Source: Leptogorgia sarmentosa (taxonomy: Eukaryota). From it: a stretch of DNA of 64,000 nucleotides. Shown in pieces: positions 32,287 to 55,960 of the stretch. Location of the stretch: contig OZ210885.1 of assembly GCA_964658305.1 (NCBI GenBank), positions 19,530,001 to 19,594,000 on the forward strand, read 5' to 3'. The notes under the pieces were generated by a model that saw nothing but the letters and a program-made list of their open reading frames with translations, did no database searches and had not been told where the DNA came from. Positions within the stretch are counted from its first letter, which is position 1. Every line of letters begins with the position of its first letter. The position numbers and the translations under genes are program-made.

Positions 32287-34656
32287 ATGTCTGCCGAAGA
32301 TAACTGCATTCGCTGCAAGGAGCCTGTAAGAGCTCGGCAACAGGGGCTGTTATGCGATTGCTGCGAAAGATGGCAACATCGGACCTGCAACAGTGGGATA
32401 TCGCTAAAAGCGTATCGAACCGCTGTTAGATGCGGTGAAGAAATTGACTGGTGTTGCGTAGACTTCTTGTTTGATTCTTGTTGCCTGCCGCAGAGAGCAC
32501 GAGACTGGTTCAAGAATGTGAGTATTCTACTCCATATAGCTGTATAGAAATGATTGATAATATAGAATAATATGAAAACTCAATAATTTAACTATTTGCA
32601 GCCGAACAAGAAGTAGATGAAGATTTAGTAAAGATGTTGGTCGACATGGCTGCTAGCGGTTCGGAAACTGACACACCCGAAGGAATGGACTGTGGCCCTC
32701 AAGGTATCAATTGCATTCGCCAGTCTTTTTTAGTGTAACTAAAAAATTGACGTCATGTATTGAGTACACGAAGTTATACTGATTGCACACAGTGCTTTAA
32801 AATAATAAGTACCTTTTTCGTTCAGAAATTCAGAATTGTCTGTCAAGATCTGTTGAGGCTCATAGTCTTCTAATGGAGGAAAATTTCAACGAAAGCATGC
32901 CTACTTTTGATGTTCTGGAACAGCTGACAGAATCGTCCATTGAAGACAACACGCCAAGACACTGGGAACATGATAATGCAACTACAGAGATAACATACCA
33001 ACTTATTGAAGATGGCTCGCAGAAAGGCAAAGAAAAGCTGGCAGACAGCCGAGGCTTCACGTACATCATTAAAGCGCAAAGAGTCAATGGCAATAAAGTT
33101 TGGAGGTGCAGCGTTAGGAACAAATCTGTATGGTGCAAAGCAATTGTATCACAAAAAGGTTCTGTCTTCACCCAGGGATCGCAGCCCCACACACAACCCG
33201 CCCAGCTTGGAGCAGCAGTTGCCACTAAAGTTGCAGCAGCGGCGAAGAAAATCACGGCCACTGAAATATTTACATCTGCCGCTGAAATAGTTAATAAGGT
33301 AATATGTTATTATTTTTTAATAAATTATTTCAATTGGGAGCTCATTATAAATCTTGGCTCCAGCAAATTCAAGCTTCATTTTAGGTAATTTTACTGATAC
33401 AGCGTTAAATCATTCATTGAATTTCCTTGTTAAAGCAAGTCTTTTAAATATTTTTTTAGGTAATGTTGGAACAGGGTGTGGTTACATCTAGTGAGCCATT
33501 GCCGGCATTGAGAAACCCAGAATACATTGCACGAGCAGCTAACCGTCACCGTCAACACATGCGACCAGCAGAGCCAACAGACTTAGAATTTGAAGTCAAC
33601 GAGGACCACATACCAGATGATTTTTTGAAGTCTGACATAAAGATCGATGGAAGGCGCCACTTGGTTTTTCCAACTGAAAACATGCTGAATTTACTGTCGA
33701 AGTCGAAGACATGGTATGTAGATGGGACTTTTAAAGTGGTAAAAGAACATTTTACGCAATTATTCACGATCCATTCGTTTGTGCGGAGTGGAGAATGCGT
33801 AAAGCAAGTGCCACTTGCATTCGTGTTGATGTCGGGCAAAAGACAACGGGACTACCGAAAAGTTCTGAAAGCAATAAAAGATCTAACGGGAAGCAGGAAA
33901 CTAGAAAAAATTATTCTCGACTTCGAGAATGCGGTATGGTGTGCAATTCCACAAGTGTTTCCAGGTGTCACGATTCGTGGCTGCTCTTTTCACTGGGCAC
34001 AGTGCATATGGAGGAAGATCCAGGATGTTGGTCTGGCCCCAGCCTATACAAACGATAACGCCACGCATAAACTATGCAGAAAGTTCCTTGCGCTGCCGTA
34101 CCTACCCAAGGAACATATATCAGCTATATTCGAGAAACTTGCGGCAAAGGCTACGTCTTCGCCAATGCTGATAGAACTCGTCAGGTATATTCGCACAAAC
34201 TGGATTGAAGGTAAAATAATGTAATTTTCGGGTAGTAAAACTCCCTTTCACTATGACTTTTGTCGCCGCTATATTTTTTAAACAGTAAAAAAATAACGTA
34301 TGTTCTGTTTATTTCTTGTTATTGAAGGTGAATTGTGGAAGCCGGAAACTTGGAGCGTGTTTTGTCAAGTTGTGAGAACCAACAACGACGTTGAAGGCTG
34401 GCATGGTATGCTAAATCGACATGCAAAGCGTGGGAACCTGAGCTTCTACTTGATGGTACGTCTTCTCCACGAGCAAGCACAGCTTGTCGCCATGCAAGTC
34501 CGGTTAGTGTCCGAGGAGAAGTTAAAGCGAAGACAAAGAAAAAAATATCGCCAGGTGCAAGGCAAACTTTTTGAGAATTGGTCGCAATATATAAATGGAG
34601 AGTTGTCAGCCATGAAGCTTTTGTCGAGATGCTCCTACCTCGCATCCCCAATCTAA
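32287..34656 (+). pseudogene. PHD-FLYWCH-MULE transposase, 5 exons (32287-32517, 32601-32703, 32826-33298, 33460-34210, 34328-34656)
   Basis: PHD 'CIRC...CDCCERWQHRTC', FLYWCH 'WRCSVRNKSVWC..H', DDE 'YVDGTF', 'LDFE', 'GCSFHW', 'RTNNDVEGWH'; GT-AG introns; one apparent frameshift near 32465. Confidence 0.88.
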
Positions 34657-34938: not shown

Positions 34939-35397
34939 TTAAACAATTATTGAATGAGGCCGAGTAGGATATGAGGAATTATTCAGGCCGAGGTTTGTGT
35001 TATCTGCCGAAGCCGAAGGCTGAGGAAGATAACACAAACCGAGGCCTAAATAATTCCGGAAATAGAACAATAATATAGTGTTCCCAAGACTGAATAAGCC
35101 AATCAGAATACAAGAGAAAATGTTCTTATAGCAATTCAACATAGCTAAACAAAAATTAAATCAAACAAATTTATTTCAACTCAATATAAACGTTTGGAAG
35201 AACCTTTCCTTTGAGGAAGCCATTTGTATTTTCCACAATTTTCCCGCTTTTGGCATATGCAGAATAAATTAGTCAACGTCATAATGTCGTATAATTTTCA
35301 ATATACGACATAATTACGTCATAATGTCGTATATGAGGATTTATTGCACTGCTTTTAACCAATCAAAACTCTTGAATTGTTTGAAATAAATAATAAT
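34939..35397. mobile_element. Non-autonomous Crypton-like element with internal hairpin; its right part is also present at about 9805-9940
   Basis: AACAATTATTGAATGAGG start; hairpin GAGGTTTGTGTTATCT...AGATAACACAAACCGAGG; 35262-35397 closely matches 9805-9940. Confidence 0.65.
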
Positions 35398-36164: not shown

Positions 36165-36425
36165 CTGGATTTACATGCATATATACATGTATATATACAT
36201 ATATATTTTGCAGTCTGCTACAACTGCCCTGAACGAGCTTGGAAAAAGTGCTGAATCTGCAACAGTAGATCAGTGGGACATTTTTGGCAAGGATGTGGCC
36301 AGTCTCAGAAGCTCCTAGTGCACTATTCTAAGTGCAGTCATGCGTAACATGGGTATAAAAAGACTGAGTCACATGTAATCGGGGTCAGTTTGTTAAACTA
36401 GACTCCGGGTTAACTTCGTTGGATT

Positions 36426-36575
36426 ATGGCCGAACCCGTTGACGTCCCAGTCGTTTTGCCTGTACAAGTACCTGATGTCGCGCCAGAAGAAAATCCACCA
36501 GCCGTTGCAGCCGCACAGCACGATGATGAACCTCAAGTACAGCCTCAAGCGTTGCCTCAAGCGCAGCCCGCCGAG
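36426..36575 (+). CDS. Leader coding exon (50 codons, Pro/Val/Gln/Ala-rich) of element 1
   Basis: ATG at 36426; ends GAG|GTATGT (phase-0 donor at 36576); equivalent exon present in element 2. Confidence 0.7.
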
Positions 36576-37292
36576 GTATGTCGTTTTATACAGTGCCTTC
36601 AAACATTTTGAGATTTCTTTGGGGGCCATTCAGACTGACTGGCGTGAGTATCGTCTTTTTGGTTATTTTGTGTCTTACTTTTGAGATCAGCCTACCGCTT
36701 GCCTAGTTCTTAATCGTTCCGTTATTTGGGGCATTATTCTTGTCGCCCACCCAGTCATAGTTTTGGTTTGTGGGCCTTTGTAATTTTGGCTATTTACTAC
36801 GTTTATGAGGCCGGTTTCCGTGCTTGTTTCCCTGGTACCTTGTAGGCGTTGCTGCGCTGCGTGCTGCCAGCTTTTCTCGATCTTGTGTTGATTTGCTGAT
36901 TTTACAGAGCGATTTTTTCCCCAGTTTCGTACGACTGTTTGTCGCCAGTTATAATCAATGGTAATTATGGTATTTGTTTTATTTCCCTCCGGTAATCGTC
37001 GTTCATTCATTTAGGGTGTGTTCCCTTAATCCCGTATTTTACATAAGTGGCTTAGTTTCGTTATGCTTTGATGCACGCCCTGGTCATTTTAATACGGTAC
37101 AGCATTACAATCGTTCTTCGTTGCATTTATGTGCTAGGTTCATAGGTTTTATGTTTATGATTTAATCTCCCGCTATGGTTGGGCAAAGTTTTCCCGGTTT
37201 GATTGCATGGATGATGTTTGTTTTGCCTTAGACCTATAATTACTGGTGGTTTGATTTTACTTCCACTCTGGGGTCATTACTATAGCTTTTTC

Positions 37293-38141
37293 GGTTGAGG
37301 CCGACTTATCGTAGAGCATGGTTGGATGATTTGCTGTAGTCATTCAATTTCGATTCGGAAAGAAATGTTTTAGTTGAGGTCCAGTTATAATTATGTTTGA
37401 GGGTATGTTGTACATCAAGTATATTGGTTGGGGCCAATTCTAGTCCTGTACATATACGAGCAGGATGTGTTTGTTGATGCTACCTTACATATATAAAGGA
37501 ATGTCTATGTGGTGTCATTGGTTGCGGCCAATTTTAACTTTGTATAAACGTACGTCGCATTGTTTCACGGCGATTTATAGCCGCTGCGTGTCTGTACATG
37601 CGACAACCCCAGGATAGATATAGTATGATGCATTGGGTTCGCCCTATTTGCCAATGTATATGTCTAAACGTGTATGTGGTTGAGGCCAATTTATAATACG
37701 TGGTGGACATTGACTGTGTCGTTGAGACCGATTTACAATTCTGGTTAACAATACACCCTGCTGGTTGAGGCCAATTTGCGACTCGGTATGAGAATATCAT
37801 GTCTTAGTTGTAGCTACTTTACAACTTGGTCACTTCTGCATGACAATCAAACGTTGGTTGTGGCCAATTTCTAATGTTGGTTGAAGCGATACCCTGTATG
37901 TTCGGCCCAACTTGCGACTGTACGGAAATTATGTTTGTTGAGTGCAATTTACAGTGAACTGCGCGACAATCTGGTGAGTAGTGTCTAGATCTAGTGTCTA
38001 GTGGCCAATTTCAAGTCTATCTGACCGTCTAAAGTTTGGTTGTCGCCAACTGCATCTATGACCGGACGCATAATTTAGTGGTTGTGGCCAATTTCTGCCT
38101 TTTTATGCATGTAGCATACATGCACTCGTTGAGATCCGTTA
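37293..38141 (+). repeat. Array of about 19 copies of a ~15-nt repeat (GGTTGNGGCCAATTT) at about 43-nt period with divergent spacers, inside the putative intron 36576-38177
   Basis: Copies at 37293, 37372, 37426, 37472, 37520, 37635, 37678, 37720, 37763, 37806, 37856, 37899, 37936, 37997, 38038, 38080, 38127, plus weaker ones. Confidence 0.85.
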
Positions 38142-38177
38142 TGTGAATCTCGCTATAGTTTGGTTCTCGTGTTTTAG

Positions 38178-38693
38178 ATTGGAGAACAGTTACGATTGTT
38201 GAAAGAGGAAGTCCAGGCATTGCGTGCGAATCGTTCTCCACAAGATGGTGTTGATGCGGCGTTGCAATTTGTTCGCCAGCTGGCTTCATCACCTGTAACA
38301 TTGCGCGACCCAACCATGATTTCCGCCGCTCTTCAGACCTTAGCAGACCAGGCAAGGTGTGCCAGCCATCCAAAATCGGCTGAGTTTGAAGCCATACTAC
38401 GGCAAACGCGGCCATTACTTTATCGGCCTGAGTATGGCGATGTTATCATCAGATTGCTTGGCACAAAGGAGTAGACGGCCGTTGCGGCAACTATCGCCAA
38501 GATGACAAAGAACCTGACTTCCAATCGTCAACCTCCCGCCCACTCATATCGTCGCCAGTTTCGAGGTCGAGGGTCAGGTTGGCGTTTTGGTCGTGATCGT
38601 ACTGGGGCTAATCGTGCAACATTACTTTGTTTTCATTGTGGCCGTCCTGGTCATTTTCAGAGACATTGCCCCGATAAAAATTCTACAGCTTAA
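38178..38693 (+). pseudogene. gag-like exon of element 1 with CCHC knuckle (premature TAG at 38472-38474)
   Basis: Acceptor GTTTTAG|ATT; 'IGEQLRLLKEEVQALR...', 'CFHCGRPGHFQRHC'. Confidence 0.8.
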
Positions 38694-38987
38694 TGCGAAC
38701 ATTGCTTTGTATTACTGACACTTTGTATTCTTGGATACTATATTTAATTATATCATATATTGGCTCATTGTCTATTTTTGCTTTTACGTCTATTTCTCTA
38801 TTATTTCTCTATTTGAGTTGATCCTATTGAGTCCTCCTCGCCACTGCTGGACCTAGGTGCGGGCTTTGTACAGCCTTGTATGCCCCGCGAGGGGTTGCCT
38901 GGGGCCGACAGTGGTTGGGCGGGCTCCCTATGCCTCGGGTAAATCCTTTGTTTGTTTGCTAGTTTTGTTTTTTCTTTACCCCTTAAG

Positions 38988-41230
38988 GGTCTCCCCGCTC
39001 CTAAGCGCCAAAGAACAGATAAACGGAAGGCCTTTTTCCGCGGACATCACCCGAGGCCGAATATACAATGGTGTGATTGGCAAGGCTCGCCTGTGTCTTT
39101 CGTCGGCCCCAGACCCCCTCCGCTGATGGTTTCACGGGGTCAGGTTTTGGCCAGCCCACGAGACGTCATTTTCCGCAACCCTTCTTCGTTTGTTCCTGGG
39201 AATTGCACAACCATTATAACGAATGGGAACAGATTGTTCCTGTAGGTGAGGCGGAAGAAGTCCTCTCCTTTATTCGCCATGGGGTAGATGTGTGGCAGTA
39301 TTTCCACCCATTTAAGGGGAAGTTTGCGGGGCAACGTTATGATTCGGCCTATCCACCCTCTTGGGAATTCCCAAATAGCCCCTCTTGTGAGCGTTTCACA
39401 GTTTTTGTCCATTCAACTATCCAGGAGAGAGTCCGCACTGGATCTTTGATATTTTGGGGGTTTGTTGGTGAAGTGCAGCCCCCACATTTGGTCATGCCTA
39501 TCACCGTTGAACCGACAAAGCCGCGCATGTGCCATGACGAGCGGTTCCTTAACCTTTGGATTCGCGATCTACCATTTACTTTAGATTATTTATCTGACTT
39601 ACCACGATATGTTGGTCGTGGCCATTTTCAGACGGTTTGTGATGACAAGAGTGGCTATGACCATTTAATGCTTACCCCATCTAGTAGAACAATGTTTGGT
39701 CTGCGTTGGGATGGTTGTTATTTCGTTTATGCCTCCTTACCGTTCGGCTGGAAGGCAAGTGCATATGTGTACCATTCCACCGGTTTGGTGGCCACCAGCT
39801 ATATTCGTACATTAAACGTCCCTTGCAGTCAATACATTGACGATAGACATAATGGTCAACTGGTTTGTCCATCTAGTGGCACCTGGTCTGATTTTGAACG
39901 AGCCGAAGCAGCGGCTTATATTGTTACCGCCGTACTCACAATCCTCGGTTATACCATCGCTCTCACGAAATCATCCTTGATACCTTCCCAGTGCGTACGT
40001 TTCTTGGGTTATTTGTCAAATTCTCTACTCATGGCGTTCGTTTTGCCCGACGATAAGAAACAGAAATTTCGAATATTAAGGGAGGTTATTTTATCTCAAG
40101 AGGAAGTCGGCCTTCAGATGTTGCAGCGGTTCGCGGGCAAAACAACATCTTTTTCTATCGCAGTCCCAGCTGCCCAATTGTACACTCGGGTCAATTATCG
40201 TGCTATTGGGTCGCATCAGACGCGGTTAGGCGGGTCAATTCCGGTTACCGGCGAGTTACGTGATCAGATTGCATTTTGGCGATTCCTGGATACCTGGGAG
40301 GGGCATCTTCCGTGGTTTGACGAGAGACACTACGTACTTAAATTTTTTGCGGATGCCTCAAACTCGGGTTGGGGAGGAGTTCTTTGTCCACTCGGTGGCG
40401 AACATTCTACACTTCGCGATTATTGGGAGCCAACTCATCAGCCCAAGCCTATGGTTGTCAAAGAGGCTCTTGCCCTCCTGAAAACCCTTTCTGTTGCGGC
40501 TCAGTCTTGGTCTAATTGCCACGTCGATGCACATTCGGACAGCTTGACATTTGTTAAGGCCTGGAAGAACCAAGGGAGCAAGAGTGCCGACCTCACTTCG
40601 GTCATTCAGTCTATCTTCGAGTTGTCACTCCGCGCCAATATTAGCCTCACTCTCTACCACGTGCCATCCAAGGCAAACTTAGCAGATGCTCCGTCTCGAG
40701 TTTTGTCCATGGCCGACTGCATGCTTGCTGAGCACGCGTGGCAAGATTTGCAGCGTCGTTGGGGACCTCATACGGTCGATCTTATGTCCCTGGATTCCAA
40801 CGTGCATACAGGTCTTGACGGCTTGCCACTACGTCATTTCTCCCCTTGGCCGACGCCCGACTCTGCGGGCGTTAATCTGTTCGCTCAATCGCTTGATGGC
40901 ACAGAAAATGCCTATGTGTTCCCCCCGTTGCCGGTCATTGGCCCTGTCCTTCGCTTCCTGTTCTCTGGTAAATGCAGCTTTACTGTTGTTCTCCCTGACC
41001 TCTTTCCACGACGCTTTTGGTGGCCCTTGATGCATGGACGTGCCCTGGATAAGTTTCGATTAGAAGGCAAAGGTCAATCCGGTATTCTCCTCTTCCCCAC
41101 GCGAGCAGGTAATTTCGAGGATAAACCTCTGGAATGGGATCTTTGGGCGTTTCGGGTGCAAATTGTTCTCTCCATTTCCCAACCTCCGCTTCCTTGTTTA
41201 GGGAGTTCCTCGGTTATGGCGACCAGCTAA
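38988..41230 (+). pseudogene. pol of element 1: RT, RNase H and Dam-like methyltransferase domain (one frameshift near 39198)
   Basis: 'DDKSGYDH', 'LPFGW', 'YIDD', 'FADASNSGWGG', 'NLADAPSR', 'VDLMSLDSN...GVNLFAQ...YVFPP'. Confidence 0.92.
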
Positions 41231-42514
41231 GACGTGTAGAGAATGCCATTACCTGAATGACGATTGCGCTGTGTTTTGTCAAAGATGTGGCGTCCAGCAG
41301 CTCTCGACCGCCGTCGGCACACCCGGTCTGCCTTCATCTACTAAAACAGTGAGACCCGATATCACGATGATAGACAAGCGTATCTCTGAACTTCAGCAGG
41401 CAAGGACTTCGACGCCTTATGGGCGTCAAAAATCGCAGCTGGGGGTTGAATCGCAGGCGTTTCTTGCCTCCTTATCCCCTTCTAAAACATCTCTCTCGTC
41501 TACACCACAGGATGTGGTCCGGTTCCTAGTATGGAAGGACCAAAAAGGACGAACAAAGGTTCACCAGCAGCACTGCCAATTCATTGGTTCTCGCGCCAAA
41601 TGCCTATGTGATTGCCGCGGGGACTGTCGATTCTACTATTGGCAAACTTCGAGCTATATTTAATAGCCTGGGTCGTTCGGGTGGGGGCAATCCTGCTGCA
41701 CACTTCACGGTTACACAATACCTCAAGTCTATTCAAACAACAAGCTGCAGCTAGGATTTCTCCTCGCCAGGCTACATCACTCTTTTTTGACAAATTTCGT
41801 CTGATCATCCTTCACTTGCGCTCTCTTCTTTGCAATTCCACATCGTCAGCTATCGATAAGTATATTTATGCCCGTGATCTGACATTTTTTACTCTTGAGT
41901 TTTATACCGGTCAGCGCGCCTCGGACCTTGGCAGACTAAAAACAGTTGACATTTCACAGAATCCGGACGGCCGCAGTTTGCTTATTCACCAACGAGTCGG
42001 GAAAACTCTCCGAGGAAGTCGTTCGAGGCCAATTCCCATCCGCCCGTTAGCGAATCCCGCCTTCTGCCCTGTCGCAAATTTAACATTCTACCGTACACTT
42101 TGCACCGCAATGCGAATTGATTTGGGTGTTGGTTTCCTCTTTCGCACAACATCACATCGTGTGTCGGTTTCTAGTTCCCCGTTTTTGGTGTCGGCGGCAC
42201 AAGCTCGGTTGGTGTCATATTTGAAGTCGCTGGGGCTCTACACTAACGAGACTGTGCACGGTTTCCGGGGGGGTACCGCTCTGCTGCTCAAGATGCTTGG
42301 TGCCTCAAGTGACGATATTGCACGCCACATAGGATGGTGCTCAACTGCCATGGTGGATCATTACACACAAGTTGATAAGGTTTCCGCGATCCTAGACACG
42401 GGCGATAAACTTGGGGATAGTATTCTTTCCCGTGCGGGGCAGGTTCCAGCCCAGGTCTTGGGACGTCGATTTACCGAATGTAATAATTTAACGGGTTTCG
42501 AACCGTTTTTCTAG
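41202..42514 (+). pseudogene. Tyrosine recombinase of element 1 with N-terminal C4 zinc ribbon (frameshifted at about 41610-41730)
   Basis: 'CRECHYLND...FCQRCG', 'GQRASDLG', 'GKTLRG', 'HGFRGG', 'HIGW', 'DHY'. Confidence 0.9.
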
Positions 42515-42802
42515 TTAACCCATAATCCTATCAGCTGTGTTTGTCTTTATTGTTTTGTTTTCTTTCTTTTCTTTCGTGTGGAGTTTTGGGGGAGAGAGTT
42601 TTGGGGGAGAGAGTTTTGGGGTTTTCGGGTTTAAGTTACGGGTAATGTTAGGTAGGTATAGACAGGGAAATAAAACTTATTTTTAGCCGGGTTTGCAATC
42701 CTAGCTAACTTACATGACCCGGTGACAGGGCTCGCATTTCCCATAACTCTCATCCCGTAAACCCATGGTAGCATGATTGCAATTGGAATAGATTACCATA
42801 TC

Positions 42803-44430
42803 CAGTGGTGTGGACAAGGGGGGCCTTGTGTAATGGGATACACAATGGGTTTTACTGAGAGTATTTTTTAATTCATCAAACTTTTCCTTCTCTAGGTTTC
42901 GTCAAAGAGTGATCAGGTTTTTATCAAAGTTGGCTTTGGTAATTGGAAGAAATCTGAAGTTTTGACTAAGCACCAAAAATCAGACTGTCACAAGCAATCT
43001 CTTCATGCATACCGTTATTGGAAACATCAGAAATCAGTTAGAAATACAAGAGTCTTATCATCAACAGACAGTGAGTAGTCATTCAGTGTTCATATATATC
43101 CATACAATTTTTCTCTTTTTCCCACAGCTAGTTTTCTTCATTCAATTACAAACACCTAATGGTTCTTTAGGTGAAAAGAAATTGAACGATTATTGGCAGA
43201 ATTATTAATGTGGTGCAACTACTGGGCAAACTTAATTTGCCCTTTAGAGGATGCCACAAGGGTGAATGCTCAATGAATAAGGGGGGTTTTAAAGGATTCA
43301 TTGCACATATGGCAGAGTTACCTGCTTATTGAAAGCCATCTAAATGATTGTGCAGGTACATACAGTATTAAAGTCTTGGTGTTCATTAATGTACAGTAAC
43401 ATGTGATAAACAACAGCACACATCGCCAGCATAGGTAGCCCTTCAGGAAGGATAATCTCACTACCTAAACGACAAAACAGATTAGATGTTTCAACCGAAG
43501 GCCATTAGTAAGATGTGAGTGCTGACTGAAAATCAGTATATACATATTTTTTTCATCAGCCACATGTGGTAGTAGTAACAGGCAATGACTGGAAACCAAG
43601 ACTTAAATGTTGGTTTGTAGTATTGTTCAGTCAGAGAAAATTGTTCTTCTTGTAGATAATGCAAAGTATATCAGCCCTGCAATTCAGAATGAAATGATCC
43701 AGTTAGTTGGGTGTGCTATTTTGGATGAAATTGTGCACAGGGTCGAAGAAGCAAAGCTGTATTCAATTATAGCAGATGAAACTCCTGATAATAGTAAAAC
43801 AGAACAGTTCTCTGCTTGTCCGTTATGTTTGGAATGGGAAAGTGGAAGAACGCTTTTGGCAGTTATACCAATAAAAGAAACCTCAGCTGAAGTTCTTTTC
43901 AATACTGTTTGCAATAAAGTAGAAGAACATGGAATAGAAATTTCAAATTTACACGGACAATGCTATGTTGGTGCAAGCAATGTTTCAGTTCACACCGGAT
44001 TACAAGCACAAATTAAAGAACCCACAACTCTCAGAATTCTCTCTCAGAGAAAAAATGCTCATTTCACCCATTGCTATGGCCATGTGTTGAACCTTGTCAT
44101 TGTGGGCACAATGAATAACAACCCAATTGCAAAAGATTTCTCTGGAACATTACAAAATTTGTATGTGTTCATTGAAACCTGGTCCAAACGACATGCAGTT
44201 TATTTGGATCAACAAAGAAAGGTTAACCAGGCTTCTGGTGAAGAAGAAGAAAGTGAGATACCAGATGGGCCTGTCGTGCTGATAGCATTGAAGCAATCCA
44301 CCACACTATAAAAGCAGTAATTGCAACTTTAGAGGATATTCGGGAAAATGAGAAGAAAGCTAATACCGCCACTGAAGCAAAAGGGTTACTGAAAAATGTC
44401 AAGGAGTTTGAATTTATCCTGGCATTGGAG
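42803..44430 (+). mobile_element. hAT (ZMYM1-like) element, 5' part, degenerate
   Basis: Start CAGTGGTGTGGACAAGGGGGG; 'GFGNWKK', 'YISPAIQNEMI', 'IIADETPD', 'THCYGHVLNL'. Confidence 0.85.
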
Positions 44431-54919: not shown

Positions 54920-55960
54920 AGGTGAAATTCTATAGCAATACCATCACACAATAGCTATAAACATGAATGAATTCTAATAGATGCCGTCACATAGCAGCAA
55001 TTAAATGTGAGTAAATTCTATGTAACACTTTGATCCATAACGAGACCGTCGCACAGCAGTTATTGAACGTGAGTAAAATTTGTTCTGCGATAAAGGCGAG
55101 ATACAGCTGCCATTTAGTGTGAGTAAATTCTACAGTAAAGTCGTCACATAACAGCATTTAAGGTTGGGTAAACGGCCCGATAAATCCGACAGTATGATGC
55201 CGTCACACAGCAGTCAATAAATATGAGCAAATTATATAGATATGTCATATGTGGTCACCCAGCAAACATATAAACATGAGTAAATCGATTCTATATCAGT
55301 GCTGTCACACAGCAGCCATCAAAGGTGAATGAATCTTGTAGTGTCGTCACGCAGCAGTCGTCAAAAGTGAGTAGAAATCTCATAATTATGCCGTCACACA
55401 GCAGCGATTTTGAGGAAATTATGATATTGCTGTTACGTAGCAACCAGTTATACGAAAAATAAAATGGATATCTAAATGTCAGTGCCGTCACACAGCAGCC
55501 ATCAAAAGTGAGTAGAACTCATAATGCCGTCACACAGCAGCGATTTTGAGGAAATTATGATATTGCTGTTACGTAGCAACCAGTTAGACGAAAATAAAAT
55601 TGATATCTAAATCAGTGCCGTCACACAGCAGCCATCAAAAGTGAGTAGAACTCATAATGCCGTCACACAGCAGCGATTTTGAGTAAATTATAATATTGCT
55701 GTTACATAGCAAACAGACGAAAATAAAATTGATATCTAAGTATCAGTGCCGTCACACAGCAGCCATCAAAAGTGAGTAAATCTTGTAGTGCCGTCACACA
55801 GCAGCCATTTTGTGAGTAAATTCTATAGTAATATTGTCACACTGCAGCCATTTAATGTGAGTTGAGTTAATTCTATATAGTATAGTGCCGTCACACAGCA
55901 GCCATGGGTAATGAATAAGTTCTATAATAATGCGGTCACACAGAGGTGTGAGTAAACTGT
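54920..55960 (-). repeat. Array of about 22 degenerate units (modal period about 43 nt; core TGCTGTGTGACGGCA on the sense strand) with a higher-order triplication of about 133 bp
   Basis: GCCGTCACACAGCAGC...GTGAGTAAA recurs at e.g. 54983, 55199, 55390, 55484, 55526, 55617, 55659, 55748, 55790, 55887. Confidence 0.9.

Follow-up and report, generated by a model that had tools for sequence, protein, structure and literature searches.

An array of 17 stem-loop motifs (37291..38094, forward strand) occupies part of what is predicted to be intron 1 of a tyrosine-recombinase retrotransposon in the window, the whole 64-kb stretch of DNA analysed here. On sequence evidence we regard it as a genuine, non-neutral-looking and clade-wide feature of a known element type; its mechanism we infer. 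The array would be a multivalent RNA signal through which Gag selects the unspliced genomic RNA to be packaged and reverse-transcribed, a reading to which we give an even chance. A preliminary description of the window had also put forward a signal on unspliced RNA, and that is the reading preferred here.

Motif copies, spacers and hairpin register

The consensus unit has a stem UUGGU/GCCAA closing a UGNG loop, followed by a U-rich tail, and units recur with a period of ~43 nt among diverged spacers. The 15-nt motif has five exact matches in the 64-kb window, all inside the array; with two or fewer mismatches there are nine, versus 0.77 expected, seven of them within the array. A profile search gave 17 copies with starts at 37293-38080, and 11 of the 16 spacings fell at 41–50 nt, the range first described. 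The original count of about 19 copies is reached only if gaps of 79 and 73 nt conceal two decayed copies; the array itself stands. It does end just before the gag acceptor, as had been noted: the final copy ends at 38094 and the acceptor AG (38176-38177) lies 83 nt on. An alternation of strong and weak copies was found from 37426 to 37899, as claimed, and broke down beyond 37899. TRF did not detect the window array because its spacers have diverged, and an Rfam scan gave only three weak matches, all on an AT repeat outside the element.

Identity between copies was 0.69 in motif columns and 0.29 in adjacent flanks, the former inflated by the picking of copies by motif match. Among 1200 arrays simulated under uniform decay, with the best block picked similarly and without indels, the gap between motif and flank identity never exceeded 0.18. 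The observed values thus bear out the combination of conserved repeats and diverged spacers; equal decay of the two, named beforehand as the pattern that would argue against selection, was not what we found. The seven strong copies were 0.89 identical in the motif versus 0.22–0.32 in the flanks. In an old duplicated block, by contrast, weak motifs show about as much drift as spacers do; one subset of the copies appears maintained while the remainder decays.

The spacers are mostly unrelated, as had been stated, except for 3 of 120 pairs that were similar at p ≤ 0.01. Spacer similarity and alignment revealed an old three-unit (136-nt) duplication, present as two copies (37717..37990, forward strand), in which the weak motifs have diverged about as much as the spacers. 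This duplication, and near-identical tandem units in relatives, agree with the minisatellite origin suggested earlier. Gain or loss of units between copies, proposed as a check, was examined in four runs, of which only X1 and X4 have contigs spanning the array; neither showed a unit gained or lost, and the window array differed from the high-depth X1 contig at five places only.

The hairpin first drawn, GGUUG/CAAUU, did not hold up. No cells were changed on both sides, 500 of 500 shuffles equalled its pairing, and its energy was +0.3 to −0.5 kcal/mol in four consensus copies. Shifting the register by two bases (UUGGU-UGNG-GCCAA) gave seven cells with double-sided change, distributed over five of six pairs, and a score reached by 7 of 500 shuffles that surpassed every slid control; energies were −2.7 to −5.2 kcal/mol in the six copies evaluated. 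Related sequences can pass this shuffle test, so the covariation in the window is modest evidence. Lack of covariation had been named as counting against the hairpin; there is modest covariation in the shifted register of the window and none in most relatives. Isolated motif copies folded better than shuffles (none of 200 as good). When the array was folded as one piece, pairing probability was below 0.15 for 15 of the 17 motif hairpins, and whole-array stability was no better than that of shuffles (z −0.5). The idea of the spacers as hidden hairpins was rejected (p 0.26). Single changes in the stems across motif sets comprised 43 G-U and 48 A-C, giving no sense-strand signal; the comparison is blurred because most loci are decayed copies, and its outcome is negative nonetheless.

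The host element and its predicted splicing

The element spans 36322-42794 and encodes Gag, RT/RNase H, a methyltransferase-like domain and a tyrosine recombinase, with the window copy broken in gag, pol and recombinase. Its domains and splice sites agree with the placement of the array, from the outset, in the gag intron of a retroelement with reverse transcriptase and tyrosine recombinase. Gag exon 2 (38178..38693, forward strand, as are all features here) contains a single CCHC zinc knuckle from 38628 and, in the window copy, a premature stop at 38472-38474; zf-CCHC scored above the Pfam cut-off, and knuckles were found in 13 loci. The pol gene (38988..41230), covering RT, RNase H and the methyltransferase-like domain, follows an acceptor AG (38986-38987) in phase 0, has no start codon of its own, and is broken in frame near 39197. 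RVT_1 was found in 41 of 44 aligned members and an RNase H-like domain in 29 of the 44; the best PDB structure match of the pol RT was Ty3 RT. The recombinase (41202..42514; acceptor AG 41200-41201, phase 0; frame broken at ~41613-41740) comprises ALOG-like and phage-integrase domains, with Phage_integrase above cut-off. It lies on the same strand as the other genes, and the element has no DDE integrase.

The methyltransferase-like domain (40712-41152) had no Pfam or PHROGs match. Its structure model (pLDDT 85) best matched the PCIF1 adenosine methyltransferase (TM 0.65, probability 1.0, E 0.007), and most of the top structural rows were SAM-dependent methyltransferases. The modelled fold argues with moderate strength that the domain after RNase H is a methyltransferase, and the match to PCIF1, a cap-specific adenosine methyltransferase, offers a lead on the function of the DIRS methyltransferase.

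The left terminal repeat A (36322..36403) holds a TATA-like box at 36354-36361 and has an approximate right edge; the right terminal repeat B (42728..42794) has an approximate left edge. Both are placed by the joints 42794->36322 and 36403->42728, and A/B repeats are found in the related loci L001 and L053. In these two relatives the set of split direct repeats is complete (A1-B1-A2-B2), and its inner pair follows the recombinase; the window copy has only A and B, its second A-B pair missing. The B-A junction of the window's family is present in runs X1 and X4. We had considered the joint 42794->36322 as proof of circles or tandem copies and rejected it, since the inner B-A junction accounts for the joint. 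That junction (window 42786-42794 plus 36322-36331; L001 5686-5706) forms a short palindrome with conserved arms, likely the recombinase site. Two letters are common to both sides of the element insertion.

By the criteria set out in PMC4157794, the element classes as a Pat1-like tyrosine-recombinase retrotransposon of the echinoderm form. Assignment to the DIRS1-like class was rejected: the window has no internal repeat of the ends, the relatives have direct repeats, and the ends are only loosely inverted. Named relatives are mostly anthozoan (Actinostola, Acropora, Oculina), which makes an anthozoan host probable. On either side of the element, at 33460-34656 and 43607-44311, lie broken pieces of MULE and DUF4371 (hAT-like) transposases. 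Also seen in the window were inverted repeats of 40 nt (34975-35057) and 17–18 nt (35276-35334), possibly ends of small non-autonomous transposons, and tandem repeats of 97 nt (1656-1930) and 133 nt (55340-55812) unrelated to the element.

Leader exon 1 (36426..36575) consists of a start codon and 50 codons rich in Pro/Ala/Val/Glu/Gln. A GT donor (36576) closes it in phase 0, and it holds the only start codon for gag, pol and recombinase. Each of gag exon 2, pol and recombinase is preceded by a pyrimidine tract and a phase-0 AG. Predicted intron 1 (36576..38177; 1602 nt, GT...AG) is the sole stretch absent from all three predicted mRNAs. Because one leader would feed these three phase-0 acceptors, only unspliced RNA is predicted to contain intron 1. 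In relatives, the best acceptor around the expected start was in phase 0 at 24 of 30 loci for recombinase, 18 of 25 for pol and 12 of 15 for gag, counts that include near-identical loci; control windows had a phase-0 acceptor in 5 of 120, 6 of 100 and 5 of 60 cases, respectively. Manual inspection placed leaders in 13 sequences, the window and 12 other loci. Two NCBI gene models among 120 pol homologues, themselves predictions, contain the leader: P0064 joins it directly to pol, and P0118 has leader, gag and pol. None of 108 recombinase homologues showed a leader-recombinase fusion, no leader was found in the 6 gag homologues examined of 21, and no longer proteins containing gag exon 2 were found. 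Contigs of four runs, which show presence and not absence, had no splice-type joint. Intron-less copies numbered 0 among 39 loci. Foamy viruses, with their spliced pol, offer a parallel to this layout.

Arrays in relatives and a deletion at motif-like sites

Related elements were surveyed in the best 80 of 234 confirmed stretches, plus the window, and the tree of these 80 loci and the window was built by a quick method. Many loci are near-identical copies, and the counts overstate independence. Tandem arrays of period 26–69 nt, made of about 11 unrelated hairpin-forming units, occupy intron 1 of the relatives. Of 33 tandem arrays in the 80 loci and the window, 26 lie in or upstream within intron 1 (L046 relabelled by hand). 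Absence of arrays from relatives, which had been named as a finding that would weigh against the array, was thus not observed. Arrays cover 8.7 of 41.3 kb in the intron 1 region, and none was found in 19.4 kb of gag-pol spacer or 13.2 kb of 3' region. Where the donor was located, an array was present in 11 of 13 sequences; in L032 the intron is present and no array was detected, and in L059 TRF reported none and a degenerate repeat was visible by eye only.

The window, L001 and L009 (with L012) form a clade with support of 99. The motif core is common to the first three; in its outer pair, U-A has mostly become C-G. Their introns no longer align: matches between the window intron and those of L001 and L009 do not exceed 17 nt. 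Across the units of 10 families, Watson-Crick hairpins were enriched versus dinucleotide shuffles (combined z −6.6), with 8 of the 10 at z ≤ −1 and 2 near 0; enrichment was equally strong on the antisense strand (z −6.5). The L046 type, one of five families tested, had no hairpin excess among the weakest. Covariation within arrays, over 16 motif sets, was found in the window (p 0.02) and L020 only, and in none of 13 others.

Loops differ between families, and L065 and L020 place one loop on two different stems. A G second from the loop end across families is an after-the-fact pattern. The Smaug-type loop consensus is CNGG(N); loops at L064 1466-1751, L065 586-985 and L020 1-384 fit it, on two different stems. 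At L056 723-1029 there is a 61-nt hairpin-bearing minisatellite, which was dropped from the motif sets because it lies outside element homology. A degenerate run of 8–9-nt repeats was seen at L054 3370-3723, downstream of the RT match. No relatives were found in viral contigs; the four two-motif matches were all in open reading frames, and three were obvious peptide repeats.

The most abundant deletion in the window's family, 39615->42023 (2407 bp), removes the greater part of pol along with a portion of the recombinase. Its joint has a depth of 440 in X1 versus ~220 for the undeleted middle, and the derivative forms a 4.1-kb circular contig in X4. Of the 5634 positions outside the array, the deletion brings together in register the two that are most motif-like: the best (39612..39628, forward strand) at its left breakpoint and the second-best (42019..42035, forward strand) at its right. 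The joint rebuilds a stem-loop two mismatches off the consensus. Only 1 of 4771 random microhomology deletions scored as high; this is a single event, found after the fact, and none of the other three deletion joints is at motif-like sites. It suggests that the motif may play a part in replication, either by encouraging template switching or by supplying one more favoured site.

Candidate roles and known systems

The mechanism that we favour begins with a leader spliced to three alternative acceptors, so that every mRNA would keep both ends of the element and lose intron 1. Were intron 1 unmarked, copying of spliced RNAs would yield defective elements that lack the intron, a cost that would favour a selection signal. 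A mark within intron 1 would be favoured because spliced RNAs would otherwise be reverse-transcribed; retroviral Psi, past the splice donor, is comparable. The mark would need to act in cis because the reverse transcriptase of DIRS-1 works in trans (PMC7192593). Several single-knuckle Gag molecules would bind the G-containing loops. Arrays would grow by tandem duplication, probably through template switching at the motif; redundant copies would decay, and units would turn over between families. More tentatively, and with doubt outweighing belief, the scheme may extend across the clade: three genes would be expressed by one leader and three acceptors, and the genome would be marked by an intronic hairpin code whose unit is swapped per family in step with Gag. 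Such a family-specific barcode for packaging would in addition drive template switching, and it would be the order's first cis-acting recognition signal.

The hairpins could instead serve unspliced RNA in another way, in nuclear export, stability or restraint of intron 1 splicing, through host proteins or Gag, as do the HBV PRE, CTE and Rev/RRE. Such a role would share the location logic and all of the conservation evidence. The CNGG-type loops of L064/L065 and L020 recall the CAGGC pentaloop of the HBV export element, a proposed SAM-domain binder (PMC2275152), and the array stops 83 nt short of the gag acceptor. We consider it unlikely nonetheless: CNGG loops occur in only two or three of about 11 unit types and not in the window's, array position within the intron varies, and fast unit turnover would better fit a partner encoded by the element than a conserved host protein. 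Slightly less likely still is that the arrays are functionless, hairpin-prone minisatellites that expand as reverse transcriptase slips within the one long stretch that is dispensable. Young homogeneous arrays in many relatives, decay of weak copies and the L056 array in a flank outside element homology would all fit this, as would little covariation, G-U changes no commoner than A-C, and strand-symmetric hairpins; the deletion at motif-like sites would likewise fit a motif that promotes switching. Against it, uniform decay could not attain 0.69 versus 0.29, the core persists between elements with unalignable introns, and no arrays occur in 33 kb of other non-coding parts. For the core of the window's motif this explanation is already weakened.

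Action on DNA is improbable. The motif might form hairpins in single-stranded cDNA, through which DIRS-1 passes (PMC7192593), or it might be a dyad site (4-bp arms, 6-bp centre) for a recombinase or transcription factor. Its lack of strand preference and a deletion crossover within the 6-bp centre fit this idea. However, the true recombination junction has different, longer arms, which are conserved in L001, L053 and the window while the array units differ, and the stems vary under a constant loop, a pattern that double-stranded recognition would not allow. We give almost no credence to the remaining proposal, from the preliminary description, of a CRISPR/TIGR-like precursor cut into ~43-nt guide RNAs. 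The window does have the repeat-spacer look and a matching period. The guide-array reading fails because the spacers are old duplicates and not acquired DNA: relatives have repeated, near-identical units without unique spacers, at periods of 26 to 69 nt, and no units were gained or lost in two runs. Spacers had no match in the DNA collection searched, which lay outside the host genome, or in 50,697 phage records. No guide-binding (Cas/Tas) effector was found among the element genes (gag, pol, recombinase) or the scanned neighbours (MULE and DUF4371 transposase pieces).

If the preferred reading, Gag selecting unspliced RNA through the array, is true, then the leader, three acceptors and intron 1 signal would answer two questions together: RNA choice and three-gene expression in elements of the DIRS order, which are poorly known, and intron retention in retroelements, which PMC8557442 calls unexplained. 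The unit and Gag pairs, about 11 in nature, would be material for studying how RNA and protein co-evolve, and minisatellites of the host may derive from such arrays. Literature searches found no paper on such arrays or on this splice layout; supplements, the founding PAT description and Repbase notes were outside their scope, and prior mention is possible. The word "intron" is absent from PMC3266345, PMC6681497, PMC4157794 and PMC3783388, and the passages searched in PMC8547959 and PMC9940879 hold nothing on introns.

Among known systems, the closest in gene content are the Pat1-like elements of the DIRS order, reported from Nematostella with a Gag zinc finger, RT/RNase H, a methyltransferase-like domain, a recombinase on the same strand and A1-B1-A2-B2 repeats (PMC4157794). 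The window element has the same domains; its relatives L001 and L053 have the A1-B1-A2-B2 arrangement, of which the second A-B pair is absent in the window copy. The Pat1-like papers searched mention no intron, leader exon with three acceptors or hairpin array. Penelope-like elements also retain a 5' intron through retrotransposition, with its significance stated to be unexplained (PMC8557442); their RT class and integration are unrelated, and the passages searched in that paper report no array. HBV PRE and Smaug-type stem-loops resemble two related families in their CNGG-type loops on short stems and in a putative role on unspliced RNA (PMC2275152), but the HBV element is single and found in all transcripts, and the window loop is not CNGG. 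CRISPR and TIGR arrays (PMC12045711) share short repeats, variable spacers and a period near 40 nt; the window array differs in lying in a eukaryotic intron, with duplicated rather than acquired spacers and no associated effector.

A further comparison is with retroviral Psi, which sits between the splice donor and gag (PMC7599994). Zinc knuckles of retroviruses bind guanosines exposed in loops, and the single knuckle of MoMuLV binds UCUG (PMC7599994). By analogy with Psi of HIV-1 and MoMuLV, the array would present short stem-loops with an exposed G past the splice donor, on unspliced RNA only, to a Gag that has a single CCHC as in MoMuLV. Unlike Psi, the putative signal in these elements comprises as many as 30 tandem units spanning 0.3–1 kb, with the unit replaced between families; and unlike in retroviruses, the element's gag itself would come from spliced RNA.
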